From positions 1 through 5,947 of the IMG/VR virus record IMGVR_UViG_2913167280_000007: a stretch of DNA of 5,947 nucleotides. One strand, given 5' to 3'. Positions 1 through 5,947 of the stretch are shown in pieces. Numbering within the stretch: the stretch's first letter is position 1; each line of letters begins with the position of its first letter. The stretch is from a virus (lineage: Duplodnaviria > Heunggongvirae > Uroviricota > Caudoviricetes). The notes beneath the pieces are model-generated. The model searched no databases. It was not told where the DNA came from and saw nothing but the letters and a program-made list of their open reading frames with translations. Both the position numbers and the translations under genes were made by a program.

Positions 1-2073
1 CGGGCTTGGGGGCACTCCAGTGCAAGTCTCAGTAATTCGCGTCAGGTCGTTCAAGATGATACCGGGCTGTGGTGGTTTTACACCGGAGCATTTCCATTGT
101 TCGTAACTCCTGGAACAAATCCAGCTCTAGATCCTCTTTGGTATTGTGTAGGATTGCTAAATGGTAAGGAAGTAAATGATCTTTCTTCATGGTGCGATGT
201 GGTCTCCAACGTTGATGTAACCAGCCAGATTAGCAAGTATTTCAGAACCCTTTCTTACCTAAAATTTAACGCGATTTGTTACGGTGAAATTAAGATCTCA
301 TCTCAGGTAAGCACATTTGATGTTGCTTATGATATGAGCAAGTTAACCATCAACTTAGACCTTTCTGTTGTTGATACCACAATCACAAATAATGGATCTG
401 TTCTCCGAGTTACTGAACCAAATGAACAAGTTTTAACTGGGTTTAATGCTGGGTTAACTAGTATCAATCAGGATACGTCAAGCATTTTACTGCAATTTGG
501 GCAATGCACATTTTCCTATGTTGCTGAAGATAATGTGAATGACAGGGCTTATCTCAGATCAACTGGACAGGTAATCAGAAAAACAGATACACTGGTGCTT
601 ACTGCGACTGACAGAAGCATTTTCAGGAGCACACCTTCACTTTATGCATTGAATGGAACGGTTACCGCGAGCGTTAAACCATTAACTAATCGCATTACAT
701 GTTATCTGCCAAAAGTTGTATTAACAGGATCTTACCCTGGTACAGCACGCATAGAAAATATCGTTCAGTGTAGCAGGAATAATGTGAAATTTATTGGTGG
801 TGCATATGACCACCGCTCAACATCTATGGTAGCACACTCTTTTTTATCCATTTCGCAATGTGCATTCATAGAGATCGAATCCTTGCTGGCAAGTAATAAC
901 TTTGCAGAAAGCAGTCAGTACGCAATAAGCCTGTTTAGCACTGCATTTGTTCACATCCATAACTGTGCATTCCCTTACGGGTGGGCATTTGTTGATGGCA
1001 ATTTTATGCGCGACACAGTCATCGAGAAATGCACCATTGCTAATGCCTTTGGTGCTCATGCGATGGCCTGGAACATGACAGTACGAGATTGTAAGTTGCA
1101 GGGGGTAACCAGCAACGTTGACTTTACTACTATTGCTGGCGGCATCCATCTTACTGGAGGTGGGCAACTTCTTGTGGAAGACATCGAGTACTGGTACTCA
1201 GGTGGTGCAGCAGCAGCAGAATATCTAGTAGGGTGCAGACAGGATTACGGTCAGGGGTGGGAAGGGGATGTAACTGTAAGAAGAGTTAAAGTGTATGCCA
1301 ATGGGCTACCAAACCCTTTTATTCTGGTATATATGGCAGGTGGTTACCCGAATACTATGGATTATACGCGCCCGTATGCTTATCTCGGTAAGAAGATAAT
1401 TGTTCAAGACGTTACCATATACAAAGCTTTGATTGACCGCGCGCCAGCAAGCGTGATCATTGCACCTGTATGGTTCGCAAACCCTTCAAGTCCATCAATG
1501 CAATGGCGCCTTGCAGATGATGTTCTTATCGAGCGCATTAAAGCTGATGTTTCAGGATTTGGCGGCCTGAGGCTGAACCTTCAGATCCCAGGGGTGAAGA
1601 CAACTAATTACGTAGCTAAAACAGTGAATTTCACCGTTCGGGAATGTGATTTTACTACTGGTGGGATCACAATGAGCCTGGCCCAACCAGGCTCTGATGG
1701 GTCAAATATAACAAACCGGGTTCTTTTCGAAGATAATATTGGACCAGTATCAGGTACTCTCAGTGGAACTGTGAACGATAAATGGGAATTTAGGCGCTGC
1801 ACTATTGGAGCGCTTAACTCAGCAGGGAGCTTAAACGCCATAAAGGTATACCTAAAAAACTGCGATATCTCTGCTGCTTTGTGTGGAGGATCTAGCAGTG
1901 GTGAACAATGGTATTATTACGATAGCCATATCACTACGGCATCAACCGTTGATCTTGGCTCCCGTGCCGTTTACTGCCATGGTAATACCTGCCCTGTTGG
2001 AGGGGCTATCTCTGGGCGGACTCAGCCAGAGTGGTGGGAGTACAGAGATACGTCTATCTTTAGAACATCATAA
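1..2073 (+). CDS. Tailspike / tail-fibre protein, C-terminal receptor-binding portion (5'-truncated by the window edge; the listed ORF 97..2073 is the same frame, which is open from base 1)
   Basis: Frame 1 has no stop from base 1 to TAA at 2071-2073, so the gene starts upstream of the window. The product is rich in N/T/S/G/V with many short alternating hydrophobic repeats and scattered Cys, which is compatible with a parallel beta-helix fold (inference). It sits directly upstream of an O-antigen-modifying acyltransferase and a lysis cassette, as in epsilon15-like phages. Its stop is followed immediately by a strong terminator. No specific homologue was recognised by eye. Confidence 0.55.
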   Translation, partial: RAWGHSSASLSNSRQVVQDDTGLWWFYTGAFPLFVTPGTNPALDPLWYCVGLLNGKEVNDLSSWCDVVSNVDVTSQISKYFRTLSYLKFNAICYGEIKISSQVSTFDVAYDMSKLTINLDLSVVDTTITNNGSVLRVTEPNEQVLTGFNAGLTSINQDTSSILLQFGQCTFSYVAEDNVNDRAYLRSTGQVIRKTDTLVLTATDRSIFRSTPSLYALNGTVTASVKPLTNRITCYLPKVVLTGSYPGTARIENIVQCSRNNVKFIGGAYDHRSTSMVAHSFLSISQCAFIEIESLLASNNFAESSQYAISLFSTAFVHIHNCAFPYGWAFVDGNFMRDTVIEKCTIANAFGAHAMAWNMTVRDCKLQGVTSNVDFTTIAGGIHLTGGGQLLVEDIEYWYSGGAAAAEYLVGCRQDYGQGWEGDVTVRRVKVYANGLPNPFILVYMAGGYPNTMDYTRPYAYLGKKIIVQDVTIYKALIDRAPASVIIAPVWFANPSSPSMQWRLADDVLIERIKADVSGFGGLRLNLQIPGVKTTNYVAKTVNFTVRECDFTTGGITMSLAQPGSDGSNITNRVLFEDNIGPVSGTLSGTVNDKWEFRRCTIGALNSAGSLNAIKVYLKNCDISAALCGGSSSGEQWYYYDSHITTASTVDLGSRAVYCHGNTCPVGGAISGRTQPEWWEYRDTSIFRTS

Positions 2074-2103
2074 AAAAAATGGCCCGTTAAGGGCCATTTT
2101 TTT
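2074..2103. terminator. Bidirectional rho-independent terminator between the convergent tailspike and acyltransferase genes
   Basis: A-run 2074-2079, GC stem GGCCC (2081-2085), loop GTTAA, stem GGGCC (2091-2095), T-run 2097-2103. Read on either strand this gives a hairpin followed by a U-tract. It lies between two convergent stop codons. Confidence 0.75.
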
Positions 2104-3247
2104 AGATAGTTGTTGTATTCTTTTTTAGCAATGTTGCGCTTAGGTTTTTCCCAGTTTTTATGAATGGGGTTTCAACCATTTTGTATGTAATTATTGATGC
2201 TATTACAGTAACAAATAATATCATCGGGAATAAAGCATAGAATTCTGTTCTGGTAACGCCATAAAAATCATAAATATTAAAAACAGTAAATGCTGAGTAC
2301 AGTATAAATCCATGAGTAAGGTATATGCTGTAGCTTATGTCTCCTAAATAAACTAGGCCATTTTTGCGAAGAGCGCCAAAGATATCATTTCCAGATGAAA
2401 TTAAAATGAAAAGCATTCCAACAAGCAGCATTTGATATAAAGAGTAGCTAGGAGTCTGTGTAAATGCTATGGCGCATATAATAATTGCAAAAATAGAACA
2501 TGTATTACTTTTTAAGAAATTGATTTTTAGCTTAGTCACGTAATATGCAATCCCACCTATCGCAAATAAAATGAATAGCTCGTAGCGCACAGACGTTGCA
2601 TAAAGACATAAAATCAAAACAACAGCGGACAGTGCGCCGTATATTTTTGAGGAACCACCTTTTTTAATGATAAGGCTTAGTAGTGGGAGTGATATGTAAA
2701 ACAGAGCCTCATAGAATAAAGTCCACTGCACGCCGCTGATGCTTCTGCCAATGTTGTACCCATTAAGAGGCTGAAGGAAGAAAGCCATTCCGGCAGCTAA
2801 AGATTTAACAAGAGAAGATAGCGAGGTCTCCCCATCATATGTAACAAAGTAAACGCTGTATATTATTGCCAGCATGAGGATGTATAATGGATATATTCTG
2901 AATATCCTGCCAGCCGCTAACTCAGGCCACGATCTTACACCTTTAGATATTTTGCCTACAAAAAGGTACCCGGTAATCATGAAAAAAAGTGAAACAGGAA
3001 TTGATCCAAGATTTCCAACAAATAGACTATTTACTGCCCATGTTCCTTCAGCCTTCCAGTTGTACGTCAAGACGAAGTGATGAAGAAGCACCATTGGTGC
3101 CAATAGCCCTCTGAAACCATCAATAGTTATGTTTCTGTTATTGCTGGTATTTATTTCAGCAGAGTTAAAAACAAAGCTTGCAACGACAATGCAGATCGTA
3201 AAAATTGTGATTAATACCAAATTATCGAAGTACATCATTCTCGCCAT
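2102..3247 (-). CDS. Acyltransferase family 3 integral membrane protein, probable O-antigen / polysaccharide O-acetyltransferase (serotype-conversion moron)
   Basis: The 381-aa product is hydrophobic with multiple predicted TM segments. It carries the family signatures R-x-x-x-x-D-G-x-R-G...H-H ('RNITIDGFRGLLAPMVLLHH') and F-F-x-I-[ST]-G-[YF]-L ('FFMITGYLF'), as in OafA/Oac-type acyltransferases. GC is roughly 30%, far below the neighbouring lysis genes. It is on the opposite strand between the tailspike and the lysis cassette. The start codon is uncertain (ATG at 3245-3247 or the ATG ATG at 3233-3238) and no clear SD is present. Confidence 0.8.
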   Translation of the reverse strand: MARMMYFDNLVLITIFTICIVVASFVFNSAEINTSNNRNITIDGFRGLLAPMVLLHHFVLTYNWKAEGTWAVNSLFVGNLGSIPVSLFFMITGYLFVGKISKGVRSWPELAAGRIFRIYPLYILMLAIIYSVYFVTYDGETSLSSLVKSLAAGMAFFLQPLNGYNIGRSISGVQWTLFYEALFYISLPLLSLIIKKGGSSKIYGALSAVVLILCLYATSVRYELFILFAIGGIAYYVTKLKINFLKSNTCSIFAIIICAIAFTQTPSYSLYQMLLVGMLFILISSGNDIFGALRKNGLVYLGDISYSIYLTHGFILYSAFTVFNIYDFYGVTRTEFYALFPMILFVTVIASIITYKMVETPFIKTGKNLSATLLKKNTTTI

Positions 3248-3392
3248 TGTAAAAAGTAAATAAACATTTTATCACCCTTTAGGTAATTTCGATAGGAACA
3301 ATCCGAACGAAATCTATCCGTATAAGGATTATCATGTATCATAAACTCACAAACTAAGGGGGGTTCATTATGCATACTTTACGGTGGTCACT
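3248..3392. promoter_or_regulatory. Divergent intergenic region, expected to hold the acyltransferase promoter (leftward) and the lysis-cassette promoter / RBS (rightward)
   Basis: A 145-bp AT-rich non-coding gap between divergently oriented genes. It contains a strong SD-like AAGGGGGG (3354-3361) and -10-like hexamers (TATAAG 3321-3326; TGTATCAT 3335-3342), but no convincing -35/-10 pair at canonical spacing. The call rests on position only. Confidence 0.3.
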
Positions 3393-3797
3393 ATGTCTGC
3401 ATCCATGACGGTTTCAGACATCAATCATGGGCTTAGCTTGTGTGCTCTTGGTGCCTGGTTGGTTGGCGTTCCGTCTGAGGTGGTGATCGGTGGTCTGGCG
3501 GGTGCGGTAATTTTTGTTACCTTTGCGGCAGAGTATCCGATAAAGCGGCGCTTGCTCCTGGCTGTCATCAGCTTCTTCTGCGGCCTCCTCTTCTACAAAC
3601 CAACGGCAACCATTCTCATTGGCTTCGCAGCCATCCTCCCCGGCGTAACATCTGACATGTTCGAAAAAGGTGTTGTGTTCTCTGCCGGTGCTTTCGTCTC
3701 TTCAATCGTGGCTGTCAGGTTTGGCGTCTGGTTGTATCACCGTTCTGAAAATCCGCGCGACCTTATCCCGGGGAGAAAAGACGATGACCAGTCCTGA
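3393..3797 (+). CDS. Small multi-pass membrane protein, putative holin / holin-associated protein (first gene of the lysis cassette)
   Basis: ORF in frame with GTG 3384, ATG 3393 and ATG 3405. ATG 3393 has a GGTGG SD-like element 5 nt upstream. Product is about 134 aa with 3-4 hydrophobic helices and a charged C-terminal tail (RSENPRDLIPGRKDDDQS). Its stop TGA (3795-3797) overlaps the start of the next gene. Position immediately upstream of the endolysin supports a lysis role. Start codon is uncertain. Confidence 0.5.
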   Translation: MSASMTVSDINHGLSLCALGAWLVGVPSEVVIGGLAGAVIFVTFAAEYPIKRRLLLAVISFFCGLLFYKPTATILIGFAAILPGVTSDMFEKGVVFSAGAFVSSIVAVRFGVWLYHRSENPRDLIPGRKDDDQS

Positions 3798-4071
3798 ACT
3801 CATTCTTAACGCTGTTATCTGCGGCGCTATAGCCATTCGCGTTCTTCTGTTTCGTCGTGACGGGTCACGCCATCGCCGCTGGGGTGGATGGCTCGCATAC
3901 CTGCTAATTGTCTCCGCCGCCAGCGTCCCTATCCGCACATTCTATGGCTATTACATCAGCGCAGATTGGTCAGAGGTAATCATTAAAGCGGTGTTCCTTG
4001 CTGCGCTTATTAAAACCAAGGGGAATGTGGTTCAGATATTCAAATTAACGAGGTCTCAACATGGACATTAA
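3784..4071 (+). CDS. Small membrane protein, putative holin (95 aa)
   Basis: ATG 3784 is preceded by SD GGGAGA (3771-3776). Product MTSPELILNAVICGAIAIRVLLF...: two or three TM helices, a positively charged loop (RRDGSRHRRWGG) and a basic C-terminus. The 5' end overlaps the previous gene by 14 nt and the 3' end overlaps the endolysin start (ATGGACATTAA). The listed ORF start at 3670 is an upstream in-frame extension with no RBS. Confidence 0.55.
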   Translation: MTSPELILNAVICGAIAIRVLLFRRDGSRHRRWGGWLAYLLIVSAASVPIRTFYGYYISADWSEVIIKAVFLAALIKTKGNVVQIFKLTRSQHGH

Positions 4072-4687
4072 CCAGTTCCAGCGCGCTGCTGGTATCAGTA
4101 CTGAGCTGGCGACGCGCTGGCATCCACACATTACCGCCGCCATGCAGGAGTTTGGCATTACTAATCCTGACGATCAGGCGATGTTTATCGCGCAGACCGG
4201 GCATGAGAGTACAGGCTTTACGCGCCTGGTGGAGAGCTTCAACTACAGCGTTGCTGGTCTTGCTGACTTCATTCGCACCGGGCGCATTACTCAACAGCAG
4301 GCGAATGCGCTTGGCCGCCGCCAGGGTGAGCCGTCGCTTCCTCTGGAGTGCCAGCGTGCGATCGCCAATCTGGTGTACAGCAAGCGCATGGGAAACAAGG
4401 GCCCGACTGATGGATGGTTCTACCGTGGGCGTGGGCTTATTCAGATCACTGGCCTGAACAATTATCGCGCCTGCGGGAACGCTATCAAAGCCGATCTGGT
4501 GTCTCAGCCTGAACTGCTGGCACAGGATGCGTATGCCGCCCGCAGCGCTGCCTGGTTCTACTCTGTGAATGGCTGCCTGAAATATACCGGTGACCTGGTG
4601 CGAGTCACGCAGATTATCAACGGTGGCCAGAACGGAATTGATGACCGCCGGGCGCGCTATGCTGCTGCGAAAAAGGCGCTGGTATGA
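4061..4687 (+). CDS. Endolysin, glycoside hydrolase family 19 (chitinase-like lysozyme)
   Basis: 208 aa. SD ACGAGG (4048-4053) lies 7 nt before ATG 4061. Motifs 'DQAMFIAQTGHESTGF', 'GRGLIQITGLNNY' and 'VTQIINGGQNGIDDR' match the GH19 catalytic core as I recall it from epsilon15-like Salmonella phage endolysins. No N-terminal TM or signal-anchor, so it is a canonical holin-dependent soluble endolysin. The stop overlaps the Rz start (ATGA at 4684-4687). Confidence 0.9.
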   Translation: MDINQFQRAAGISTELATRWHPHITAAMQEFGITNPDDQAMFIAQTGHESTGFTRLVESFNYSVAGLADFIRTGRITQQQANALGRRQGEPSLPLECQRAIANLVYSKRMGNKGPTDGWFYRGRGLIQITGLNNYRACGNAIKADLVSQPELLAQDAYAARSAAWFYSVNGCLKYTGDLVRVTQIINGGQNGIDDRRARYAAAKKALV

Positions 4688-5184
4688 TTTTGGCATTCAT
4701 AAAAGCGTACTGGAGGCAGCTGATCATTGTTGTGTTGCTCTCTGCGCTGGTAGTCGGTGGCATCGTTGCATGGAAGGTTCACGGCAGCCAACAGTATGAT
4801 GCCGGATATGCACAGGCAAAGGCAGACCGTAAAGCCGAAGATGATAAAACTCGCCAGAAGGATGAGCAGGAGAAAGCGACCAATGAACGTGAAGCTCAGC
4901 AAAGGATCGACCAGGCGCGCAATGATGCTCTTGATGCTGCCGCTCGCGCTGGCAGGTTGCAGCAGCAGCTCATTGCCATCGACAAGCAGCTCAGGCAGTA
5001 TAACGCCACTGTCGGCGCTGGGCCGTCAGCCGCAGACACCGGAATTTTGCTTGCCGACGTGCTCCGCCAATCTCTCGAAAGAAACCGAGTCCTGGCAGAA
5101 TACGCTGACCGGGCAGCCGAAGCCGGGCGGGTCTGCGAACGTCAGTACGACACCCTGACGAAACAGGTCACAGTTTCCCGGTGA
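4684..5184 (+). CDS. Rz: Rz-like i-spanin (inner-membrane spanin subunit)
   Basis: 166 aa. N-terminal TM helix (LIIVVLLSALVVGGIVAW), then a charged periplasmic domain predicted to be coiled coil (rich in A/E/K/R/Q) with a single Cys near the C-terminus. Translationally coupled to the endolysin, and it contains the embedded +1-frame Rz1 gene. Confidence 0.85.
   Translation: MILAFIKAYWRQLIIVVLLSALVVGGIVAWKVHGSQQYDAGYAQAKADRKAEDDKTRQKDEQEKATNEREAQQRIDQARNDALDAAARAGRLQQQLIAIDKQLRQYNATVGAGPSAADTGILLADVLRQSLERNRVLAEYADRAAEAGRVCERQYDTLTKQVTVSR
4922..5158 (+). CDS. Rz1: Rz1-like o-spanin (outer-membrane lipoprotein), embedded in the +1 frame of Rz
   Basis: ATG ATG at 4922-4927 begins MMLLMLPLALAG|C: a short signal peptide with lipobox L-A-G-C. 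The mature part is Ser/Pro/Thr-rich with further Cys (EFCLPTC), as is typical of Rz1. It lies entirely inside Rz. The listed ORF 4757..5158 is the same frame with a non-coding upstream extension. Confidence 0.8.
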   Translation: MMLLMLPLALAGCSSSSLPSTSSSGSITPLSALGRQPQTPEFCLPTCSANLSKETESWQNTLTGQPKPGGSANVSTTP

Positions 5185-5300
5185 CGGTATATAAAACGGT
5201 ACGCCAAAAAACGGATTTAATAAAGTTGTTACCATTCAATTGGTTATGCTTACCGTAAATAATTGAGTGGAATGATTTAATTCCTGCACTATGAATGAAC

Positions 5301-5330
5301 AAAACCCTCTGTTGCTACAGAGGGTTTTTT
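5301..5330 (+). terminator. Rho-independent terminator ending the lysis operon
   Basis: AAAA (5301-5304), stem CCCTCTG (5305-5311), loop TTGCTA, stem CAGAGGG (5318-5324), T-run 5325-5330. It lies about 120 nt downstream of the Rz stop. Confidence 0.7.
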
Positions 5331-5407
5331 ATATTGCTGACTAAAGTTAGCAATATAAAAAAGCCTGTAATCCTCACGAATCATAGGCTTGAAGTTACTG
5401 ACAGCGA

Positions 5408-5947
5408 TTAATTAAACCAACTGTCCGATTTATTCTCTTCTGCTTTACCCACGCTTTTCATCAAATCGCGACCACCTTCTGTCACATTCCTGTTAGCGTC
5501 AGCTTCAGATTGCACGACATCAGTTTGCGCGGCTTTGTGCTTCAGCTCCTGATCGATAAATTCGTTCTCGCGCTTAACGCGGGCTTCTTCTTTCGCCAGC
5601 GCCAGTTTTTGTTTCTGAATCTCTAAGCTGCGCAGCTCATCTTCATAACTTTGATCGCGTTTTTTATCCGCAGTGGCTTCGGCGTCCAGTTTATCCTGGC
5701 GAGCTTTCTTATCCGCTGCTGCTGCCGCCGCTCTTTTATTGGCGGCGGCCTGAGCGTTTGCGCGACGCTGTTTCTCTTGTTGAATTTCCCTGTTGCGCTC
5801 CGCGACCCATTCGTCATGCTGCCTTTGCTCTTCATTTTTACCTTGCTGTTCCGCTTCTGCGACAGCCGAGAGTTGATCCTGCAATGATGAGGCGGCAGCC
5901 GGATAGCTTAAGGAGGCTAAGATGGCGCAAAGAAAAACTTTCTTCAT
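5408..5947 (-). CDS. Secreted (Sec signal peptide) highly charged coiled-coil protein of unknown function; candidate moron at the lambda bor position
   Basis: 179 aa. N-terminal MKKVFLCAILASLSYPAAASS looks like a signal peptide with an A-x-A type cleavage site. The remainder is E/K/R/Q/A-rich, predicted helical or coiled coil, and includes a poly-Ala tract (RAAAAAADKK). The start ATG is at the very window edge (5945-5947). It converges on the lysis operon. No family was recognised. Confidence 0.6.
   Translation of the reverse strand: MKKVFLCAILASLSYPAAASSLQDQLSAVAEAEQQGKNEEQRQHDEWVAERNREIQQEKQRRANAQAAANKRAAAAAADKKARQDKLDAEATADKKRDQSYEDELRSLEIQKQKLALAKEEARVKRENEFIDQELKHKAAQTDVVQSEADANRNVTEGGRDLMKSVGKAEENKSDSWFN

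Follow-up and report, generated by a model that had tools for sequence, protein, structure and literature searches.

A conserved out-of-frame mini-ORF and a fold-back hairpin in the leader of the epsilon15-like lysis cassette

The control of lysis genes is well worked out for the phages lambda, P22, 21 and MS2. Termination-reinitiation by way of a short upstream cistron is known from overlapping operon junctions, from the MS2 lysis gene and from mok-hok of plasmid R1, and the insertion sequences IS10 and IS50 shield themselves from outside promoters by fold-back inhibition of read-through transcripts. For the epsilon15 group, to which phiV10, SPN1S and many prophages of Salmonella, E. coli, Klebsiella and Enterobacter belong, we found no such work on lysis control. 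Here we analyze the leader of the lysis cassette in a stretch of viral DNA of 5,947 nt (IMG/VR record IMGVR_UViG_2913167280_000007, positions 1 to 5,947; hereafter the window), which covers the right end of an epsilon15-like prophage of the genus Uetakevirus. The element in question is a short open reading frame (mini-ORF) of 12 codons that overlaps, out of frame, the start of the first lysis gene, which codes for a membrane protein resembling epsilon15 gp23. We consider the chances evenly balanced that this mini-ORF represents, in the window, a leader cistron conserved in the lysis operons of epsilon15-like phages, feeding or tuning the first lysis gene, and that an associated hairpin silences read-through transcripts.

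The closest described systems share several traits with this leader. As in the coupled cistrons, a short ORF with a strong Shine-Dalgarno (SD) site runs over the site where ribosomes bind for the following gene, and its stop codon is a few to about 20 nt away from the start of that gene; the identity of the peptide does not matter, and the downstream gene codes for a small membrane protein for killing or lysis. The leader studied here differs in that the main gene owns a good SD, its dependence on the upstream cistron being only putative, and in that the mini-ORF is located in the 3' arm of a hairpin that also contains the promoter-like sequence. The antisense RNA of hok/sok found no counterpart at the leader. 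In lambda S and P22 gene 13, which use a dual start with the sdi stem-loop, RNA structure and alternative initiation likewise occur directly upstream of the first lysis gene, but a close in-frame pair of start codons flanking a basic residue is missing here, and the extra start is out of frame and opens a separate peptide. The RNase III hairpins of the T7 R sites and the lambda N leader resemble those in relatives of the window in forming a helix of at least 20 bp just ahead of a gene whose ribosome-binding site lies within the 3' arm or adjoins it; the present leader differs from them in that a consensus SD reaches into the loop, cleavage is only predicted and the copy in the window is too interrupted for a good substrate.

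In IS10 and IS50, as in the arrangement proposed here, the 5' arm contains a -10-like hexamer and the 3' arm an SD with its start codon, and only incoming transcripts fold. A near-identical SD (AAGGGGGU) is hidden in a stem of the 5' untranslated region of IS200 tnpA, behind a single-stranded C/A-rich stretch (PMC4513863). In all three elements it is the transposase that is protected, whereas here it would be prophage lysis genes, the protected start belongs to the mini-ORF and the transcription start is a predicted one. Each ingredient is known from elsewhere. Literature searches returned no account of this leader, nor of how lysis is regulated in the genus, and as far as we found the combination ahead of a phage lysis cassette is apparently undescribed, save for a one-line 'RNase III' annotation.

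Direct reading of the window confirms the ORF reported in an initial annotation of this DNA. Its codons (ATG at 3370-3372, CAT ACT TTA CGG TGG TCA CTA TGT CTG CAT CCA, TGA at 3406-3408) lie in frame 1 (3370 modulo 3) as against frame 0 (3393 modulo 3) for the membrane-protein gene, run across the ATG at 3393-3395 and end in a stop that shares the sequence ATGA with a further ATG at 3405-3407. The stop is located 13 nt beyond ATG 3393, in the range of reinitiation. The SD of the mini-ORF is indeed the best of the region, with a duplex energy of -11.6 kcal/mol against the 3' tail of 16S rRNA, although it occupies 3356-3363 and not 3354-3361, and its spacer to the start codon is 6 nt (TTCATT) and not 8 nt. 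The initial annotation had further held that this is no ordinary SD-ATG arrangement. An out-of-frame mini-ORF with a near-consensus SD is indeed conserved, but ATG 3393 has a good SD of its own within the mini-ORF, GGTGGTC (Table 1), and the main start is therefore not SD-less. Note that the combination of a strong SD and an ATG, seen in the window alone, does not go beyond chance: three ATGs with an SD of -11 or better are present, compared to 1.3 ± 1.5 in dinucleotide shuffles. We count the mini-ORF as real because of its conservation among relatives.

This conservation was assessed on 175 loci of epsilon15-like phages and prophages that reduced to 108 distinct leaders. They were drawn from phage records, from three genomes (Buttiauxella, Pseudocitrobacter and Superficieibacter) and from two protein-seeded scans of IMG/VR; a scan of a genome collection, likewise seeded with the protein, yielded three loci only. 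The initial annotation had named conservation in related prophages as a check, and the mini-ORF is indeed kept in 100 of the 108 leaders, in 96 of them with a strong SD and an ATG placed 22-23 nt ahead of the main ATG. The prevailing form (82/108) has this ATG at 23 nt, 12 codons and a stop at +14. In a clade from E. coli (type B, 12/108) the ATG is found at 22 nt, in the other frame, and opens 14 codons (MHINGGKHVSSTNQ) with a stop at +21, while two leaders, those of phiV10 and L036, have 6 codons that end 2 nt before the main ATG. Four more leaders carry a mini-ORF with a weak SD. One of them (L151, from IMG/VR) has the mini-ORF reduced to a bare start-stop ATG-TGA at about position 378-383 and represents a natural minimal variant. 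Eight leaders lack a mini-ORF: those of the ZX5 type, L144 and L146 have ATA in place of the ATG, and in BUCT711 the leader is missing altogether.

Among the 71 leaders of type A, both the ATG of the mini-ORF and the core GGTGG of the main SD are invariant. The SD of the mini-ORF in relatives reads TAAGGGGGT or TAAGGAGGT and precedes the ATG by 4-7 nt, a spacing that is held in spite of insertions and deletions. The stop falls between -4 and +23 of the main ATG, and the mini-ORF always reaches or crosses the ribosome-binding site of the first lysis gene. The encoded peptides, on the other hand, differ with the frame (MHIKRWSLCRTR versus MHINGGKHVSSTNQ) and are 1, 6, 12 or 14 codons long. With a mean pairwise identity of 89%, the leader is better conserved than the coding sequence at 77%. 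A constant position and SD, together with a variable frame, length and peptide, is consistent with selection on translation over the main ribosome-binding site and with a role for translating as such, as in coupling or gating.

Several more specific roles can be set aside. A conserved micropeptide is ruled out by a free codon 3, the use of two frames and the range of 1-14 codons. A sensing leader peptide acting by attenuation or ribosome arrest, of the trpL, ermC, tnaC or secM type, is equally untenable, as there is no conserved peptide, arrest motif or set of regulatory codons; a scan of positions 2000-3500 found nothing resembling a terminator from the mini-ORF onward and no terminator/antiterminator alternative. 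That the mini-ORF is joined to the gp23-like protein by frameshifting is contradicted by the lack of a conserved slippery heptamer and by the occurrence of the mini-ORF in both alternative frames. The position of the stop was also considered as evidence for selection and was discarded: stops occur soon after the main ATG in both alternative frames in nearly all sequences, and the motifs xTA-ACx, ATG-ACx or CTG-ACA at codons 5-6 provide one also where the mini-ORF is missing or lies in the other frame. A minus-strand ORF at 3235-3375 (46 amino acids, starting at an ATGCAT palindrome) is disrupted by 1-nt insertions and deletions in relatives.

The homologues place the true start of the first lysis gene at ATG 3393. 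All annotated homologues of the gp23-like gene are 405 nt long and begin at the equivalent position, a metagenomic relative (L071) carries GTG there, and the protein alignment opens cleanly at this methionine. Fixing the start is of modest practical value. The initial annotation had stressed the ATGA formed with the ATG at 3405, which as a conserved junction must be given up: only 17 of the 108 leaders have an ATG there, the other 91 showing CTA, TTA, GTA or CTG at codon 5, and the conserved start is the equivalent of 3393. The broader proposal, of a leader that gates initiation of the first lysis gene, is upheld with respect to a conserved out-of-frame mini-ORF lying over its ribosome-binding site, but not with respect to the coupling point or a sensing peptide. 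The strong ribosome binding and the control of lysis timing that it invoked are putative, and the hairpin and promoter-like module around the mini-ORF had escaped it.

The second conserved element of the leader is a hairpin. In the GenBank record of epsilon15 the 63 nt just ahead of gp23 are annotated as 'RNaseIII, mRNA processing', and this stretch folds into a continuous helix of 22 bp (-35 kcal/mol, z = -5.6). RNAalifold predicted 26 pairs for the 71 type-A leaders. As evidenced by a 28-pair model on 91 distinct leaders, 92.3% of the cells are paired, compared to 36-53% with slid partners; ten pairs change on both sides, and the covariation score of 0.211 exceeds the value of 0.167 in shuffles, none of 500 reaching it. 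The hairpin is a structure at the level of the plus-strand RNA, because it contains many G-U pairs and the minus strand folds far more weakly, with a median energy of -13.8 kcal/mol as against -28.5 kcal/mol for the plus strand. Three elements are paired within its 3' arm in the consensus: the G-run belonging to the SD of the mini-ORF, the start codon of the mini-ORF and, at the base, the main SD (GGTGG with CCAY). The apical loop comprises a C/A-rich AACTAA together with the 5' half of the mini-ORF SD, unpaired. In type-B leaders the 5' arm has a different sequence (TATCATGCRTRATG) with complementarity retained, and their SD, AGGAGG or AGGGGG, is mostly or wholly unpaired, yet conserved. For the unpaired half in the loop and for the type-B site, base-pairing cannot account for the conservation of the SD. 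The Rfam 15 covariance models gave no match at E <= 1 on the leader of the window, of epsilon15 or of phiV10.

The window itself holds only a degraded copy of this hairpin. Of the 26 consensus pairs 19 remain, the longest unbroken run is 7, and the energy of -11 to -13.1 kcal/mol is that expected by chance (z = 0.14). The copy thereby falls short of the near-continuous double-stranded RNA of about 20 bp that defines an RNase III site, a length that the epsilon15 hairpin attains. In the nearest relatives (L015 and L017, with 92-93% protein identity) the hairpins are intact, at -28 to -30 kcal/mol; the window is 78-81% identical to its closest relatives in the hairpin region and 80-86% in the gene, whereas elsewhere the leader is the better conserved of the two. 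The constraint on the hairpin thus appears, from this comparison, to be relaxed in the lineage of the window, with SD, ATG, stop and main SD untouched. The ZX5-type leaders show the reverse, as they have lost the mini-ORF and kept a reduced hairpin in which one pair is compensatory and one wobble has turned into a Watson-Crick pair. Hairpin and mini-ORF are therefore separable features. We also noted a perfect 7-bp inverted repeat in the window, ATGTCTG at 3393-3399 and CAGACAT at 3416-3422, that could pair the main start codon with codons 8-10; it is partly conserved in the closest relatives and statistically unremarkable.

Upstream of the mini-ORF, an operator-like palindrome is followed by a promoter-like module that forms part of the 5' arm of the hairpin (Table 1). 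The sequence ATTACC-N5-GGTAAT is labeled as 'repressor' sites in the epsilon15 record and found there in the immunity region and before late operons. The module, generalized as CA[TC]A[TA]NNGG[TA]T-N7-TANNAN, occurs in exactly three plus-strand copies each in epsilon15 (at 2988, 19940 and 24751) and phiV10 (at 3308, 20921 and 24739), where about 0.04 chance matches per genome are expected by our own arithmetic on the information content of the pattern. The three copies precede the head operon (gp3), the tail-fibre gene and the lysis cassette, and every one of them is located 28-40 nt downstream of an operator palindrome. From the hexamer to the first ATG the distance is 26 nt both for gp3, a real gene, and for the lysis mini-ORF. 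In the 71 type-A leaders the hexamer reads TAT-N-AT; any of the four bases is found at its fourth position, with no compensating change, and its last T, unpaired in the consensus fold, is invariant though its hairpin partner varies. By its sequence and placement, CAYAWNNGGWT-N7-TANNAN is a candidate for a phage-specific late promoter, annotated in neither record.

With divergent genes upstream and a terminator behind the tailspike gene, the lysis cassette needs a promoter of its own. Divergent upstream genes are found in the window and in 6 of the 11 phage records fetched (epsilon15, phiV10, Tyrion, SPN1S, BUCT554 and PAT1), the terminator behind the tailspike gene in the window and in epsilon15. 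The putative promoter in the 5' arm is likely to be regulator-dependent. In phage ZX5, over-expression of the repressor lowered the transcripts of holin and endolysin by more than 99.9% (PMC9782041), which is compatible with, though no proof of, repressor control of the leader region. Note that the operator at 3271-3287 also overlaps GTGATA (3275-3270), the -35-like element of a minus-strand promoter predicted to serve the acyltransferase gene, and one operator could therefore regulate both divergent units.

In 5' to 3' direction, the proposed control region would thus consist of the operator (3271-3287), the module ending in TATCAT (3337-3342), the C/A-rich stretch with the SD (3354-3364), the ATG of the mini-ORF (3370), the main SD inside the mini-ORF (3383-3389), the main ATG (3393) and the stop of the mini-ORF (3406-3408). 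Transcripts from the phage promoter would begin about 7 nt past the hexamer, at approximately 3349, such that the native mRNA lacks the 5' arm and presents the ribosome-binding site of the mini-ORF as the first element on an open leader. Ribosomes would load there and read 12 codons that span the main ribosome-binding site. They would terminate 13 nt beyond the main ATG, and most initiation of the gp23-like protein would come from terminating ribosomes that restart at 3393. In the window and a minority of its relatives a restart at the ATGA at 3405 may also occur; the overlapping cassette would follow. The effect on the first gene could be either boosting or throttling, and the timing of lysis may be affected. 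Transcripts that enter from upstream would carry both arms, and in relatives these would fold into the hairpin of about 28 pairs, in which the start codon of the mini-ORF and the main SD would be buried. The folded read-through transcript would be a plausible substrate for RNase III, and the lysis genes would stay silent in the lysogen.

For three type-A relatives the native leader is predicted to have less structure than 93-99% of shuffles (z from +1.35 to +1.75). The mini-ORF would therefore not be needed for melting, and for these relatives we rule out that its translation opens a structure over the main site. The mini-ORF is probably a small translational control element. More tentative, and to our minds doubtful, is the idea of a built-in fail-safe, in which the -10 region of the promoter is complementary to the ribosome-binding site of the leader cistron and only transcripts from the regulated promoter can be translated.

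A number of observations weigh against a leader cistron that feeds the first lysis gene. Its ATG and the G-run are base-paired in the hairpin, and part of their conservation could be structural. Stops past the main ATG exist whichever frame the mini-ORF uses, so that their placement is no sign of selection. In three lineages (ZX5-type, L144 and L146) an ATA takes the place of the ATG, a change that also improves pairing, and these phages evidently function. The initial annotation had named relatives that lack the ORF while keeping the SD as the case that would speak against it, and such relatives exist in part, since L144 and L146 retain the G-rich run. We considered whether loss of the mini-ORF is offset by a stronger main SD, and duplex energies do not support this: leaders without it show no stronger site. 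As the main SD is good in itself (-10.2 kcal/mol) and not stronger where the mini-ORF is absent, the data do not point to a main gene that depends on the mini-ORF. Finally, a simple sigma-70 scan did not call the predicted promoter, the -35 region of which is poor, and both the translation of the mini-ORF and the start of transcription within the hairpin are deduced from sequence.

Appreciable weight stays with what we regard as the main rival, unlikely as we judge it to be: that the long hairpin is an RNase III processing site, the G-run and the ATG being kept only for pairing with the 5' arm and the mini-ORF being a by-product. Cleavage would then remove the 5' arm, perhaps together with the upstream SD, and free GGTGGTC for independent initiation at 3393. 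The epsilon15 record labels the stretch as such a processing site, the helix in relatives is continuous over 22 bp and covaries, and the main SD is strong. The position of ATG and G-run within the stem and the replacement of ATG by ATA in three lineages, of which the ZX5-type and L146 retain a recognizable, weaker stem, are the reasons why this explanation keeps its weight. However, the loop half of the SD and the type-B SD are conserved without pairing, and the window retains SD, ATG and stop while its helix has decayed to chance level. In addition, the module in the 5' arm recurs at the start of two further operons, where a hairpin of this kind is missing, and the epsilon15 annotation is itself a prediction, for which our literature search found no cleavage data.

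Distinctly unlikely, in our estimate, is a mini-ORF that is translated but acts negatively, the stronger site 23 nt upstream competing with or occluding the main one and sweeping ribosomes holding the output of the gp23-like protein at a low, fixed level; alternatively, a ribosome at the 5' end might stabilize the mRNA in a STAB-SD-like manner. The two start sites do fall under one 30S footprint, the SD of the mini-ORF (-11.6 kcal/mol) exceeds that of the main gene, the native leader offers no structure that would need melting, and leaders without a mini-ORF need no stronger main SD. Against this, stops from 2 nt before the main ATG (phiV10) to 23 nt past it are equally ideal for reinitiation; the sign of the effect is not distinguished by the present data. 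A holin/antiholin-like dual start, with the ATGA coupling the leader to ATG 3405 and the leader picking between Met1 (3393) and Met5 (3405), is highly improbable: the overlap does occur in the window and the 17 leaders mentioned, including that from Buttiauxella and those of the closest relatives, but the other 91 lack an ATG at codon 5, the two methionines are separated by Ser-Ala-Ser with no Lys or Arg between them, unlike in lambda S, and the conserved feature is the mini-ORF and not the overlap.

Table 1. Position of the leader elements and of the neighboring genes in the window.
Feature	Position	Strand	Remarks
Leader mini-ORF, 12 codons, MHTLRWSLCLHP, stop TGA	3370-3408	+	homologous mini-ORF in relatives
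SD of the mini-ORF, AAGGGGGG	3356-3363	+	extended form CTAAGGGGGGT, 3354-3364
SD of the main gene, GGTGGTC, inside the mini-ORF	3383-3389	+	-10.2 kcal/mol with GAUCACC in the 16S tail
ATG of codon 5 (Met5), in frame, sharing ATGA with the mini-ORF stop	3405-3407	+	minority variant, 17/108 distinct leaders
Degraded copy of the conserved fold-back hairpin	3318-3387	+	5' arm: promoter-like module; 3' arm: SD G-run, mini-ORF ATG, main SD
Operator-like palindrome ATCACC-CTTTA-GGTAAT	3271-3287		like ATTACC-N5-GGTAAT; putative protein-binding site; conserved in an alignment
Promoter-like module CGTATAAGGAT-N7-TATCAT	3319-3342	+	-10-like hexamer 3337-3342; predicted transcription start ~3349
Tailspike gene	97-2073	+	bidirectional terminator behind it
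Acyltransferase serotype-conversion gene	2102-3247	-	
First lysis-cassette gene, epsilon15 gp23-like membrane protein	3393-3797	+	Pfam Phage_holin_8, E = 6.9e-11
Phage_holin_3_7 holin	3784-4071	+	lysis cassette
GH19 endolysin	4061-4687	+	lysis cassette
DUF2514 Rz-like spanin	4684-5184	+	lysis cassette
Host gene, DUF5384	5408-5947	-	

The closest phage records to the window, those of BUCT554, phiV10, Tyrion, SPN1S and epsilon15, are 68-76% identical across this stretch, and a protein-seeded scan of complete E. coli genomes found relatives at no more than 80% identity, so that E. coli is not the source of the window. The lysis cassette consists of four genes, all junctions of which overlap (3784/3797 by 14 nt, 4061/4071 by 11 nt and 4684/4687 as ATGA). 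To judge from this arrangement of starts and stops, the overlaps at all three junctions suggest translational coupling along the entire cassette, and ribosome entry at the leader could spread through it because every junction overlaps. Within the gene for the Rz-like protein, an Rz1-like ORF is embedded in the +1 frame at approximately 4874-5158, with a lipobox-like LALAGC in the translation of the ORF 4757-5158; it resembles the embedded Rz1 annotated in epsilon15 and phiV10.

On the left side of the leader, the convergent tailspike and acyltransferase genes are separated by a two-way intrinsic terminator (AAAAAAAATGGCCCGTTAAGGGCCATTTTTTT, 2074-2101), and the sole near-hit in Rfam, to the family Bp1_162 (E = 0.43), is just the hairpin of this terminator. 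The first ATG of the acyltransferase ORF (3247) is abutted by a predicted minus-strand -10 hexamer, TACAAT, that ends at 3246, and the true start of this gene may therefore be one of the downstream methionine codons (MARMMY...). On the right side, the non-coding region 5185-5400, 3' of the spanin gene, contains a terminator-like hairpin (AAAACCCTCTG...CAGAGGGTTTTTT, approximately 5303-5330) ahead of the host DUF5384 gene on the opposite strand. By its likeness to the attP region behind Rz in epsilon15, this region probably represents the junction of prophage and host.

The leader gives meaning to a feature that was annotated solely as 'RNase III' in a single GenBank record, and the relatives supply natural mutants of it, namely the change of ATG to ATA, the 6-codon and start-stop variants and the decayed hairpin of the window. 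It is a compact candidate for a device that keeps lethal genes silent beside conversion genes and meters the first lysis protein. To silence read-through into holin and endolysin makes biological sense, since a lysogen has to express the neighboring serotype-conversion genes; PAS61 and TL-2011b, two of the fetched phage records, have the conversion genes on the same strand as the cassette. If the fail-safe exists, a transcript running in from lysogenic-conversion genes or host DNA would be kept silent by folding into a hairpin sensitive to RNase III, and the leader cistron would set the flow of ribosomes into the entire overlapping holin-endolysin-spanin cassette.

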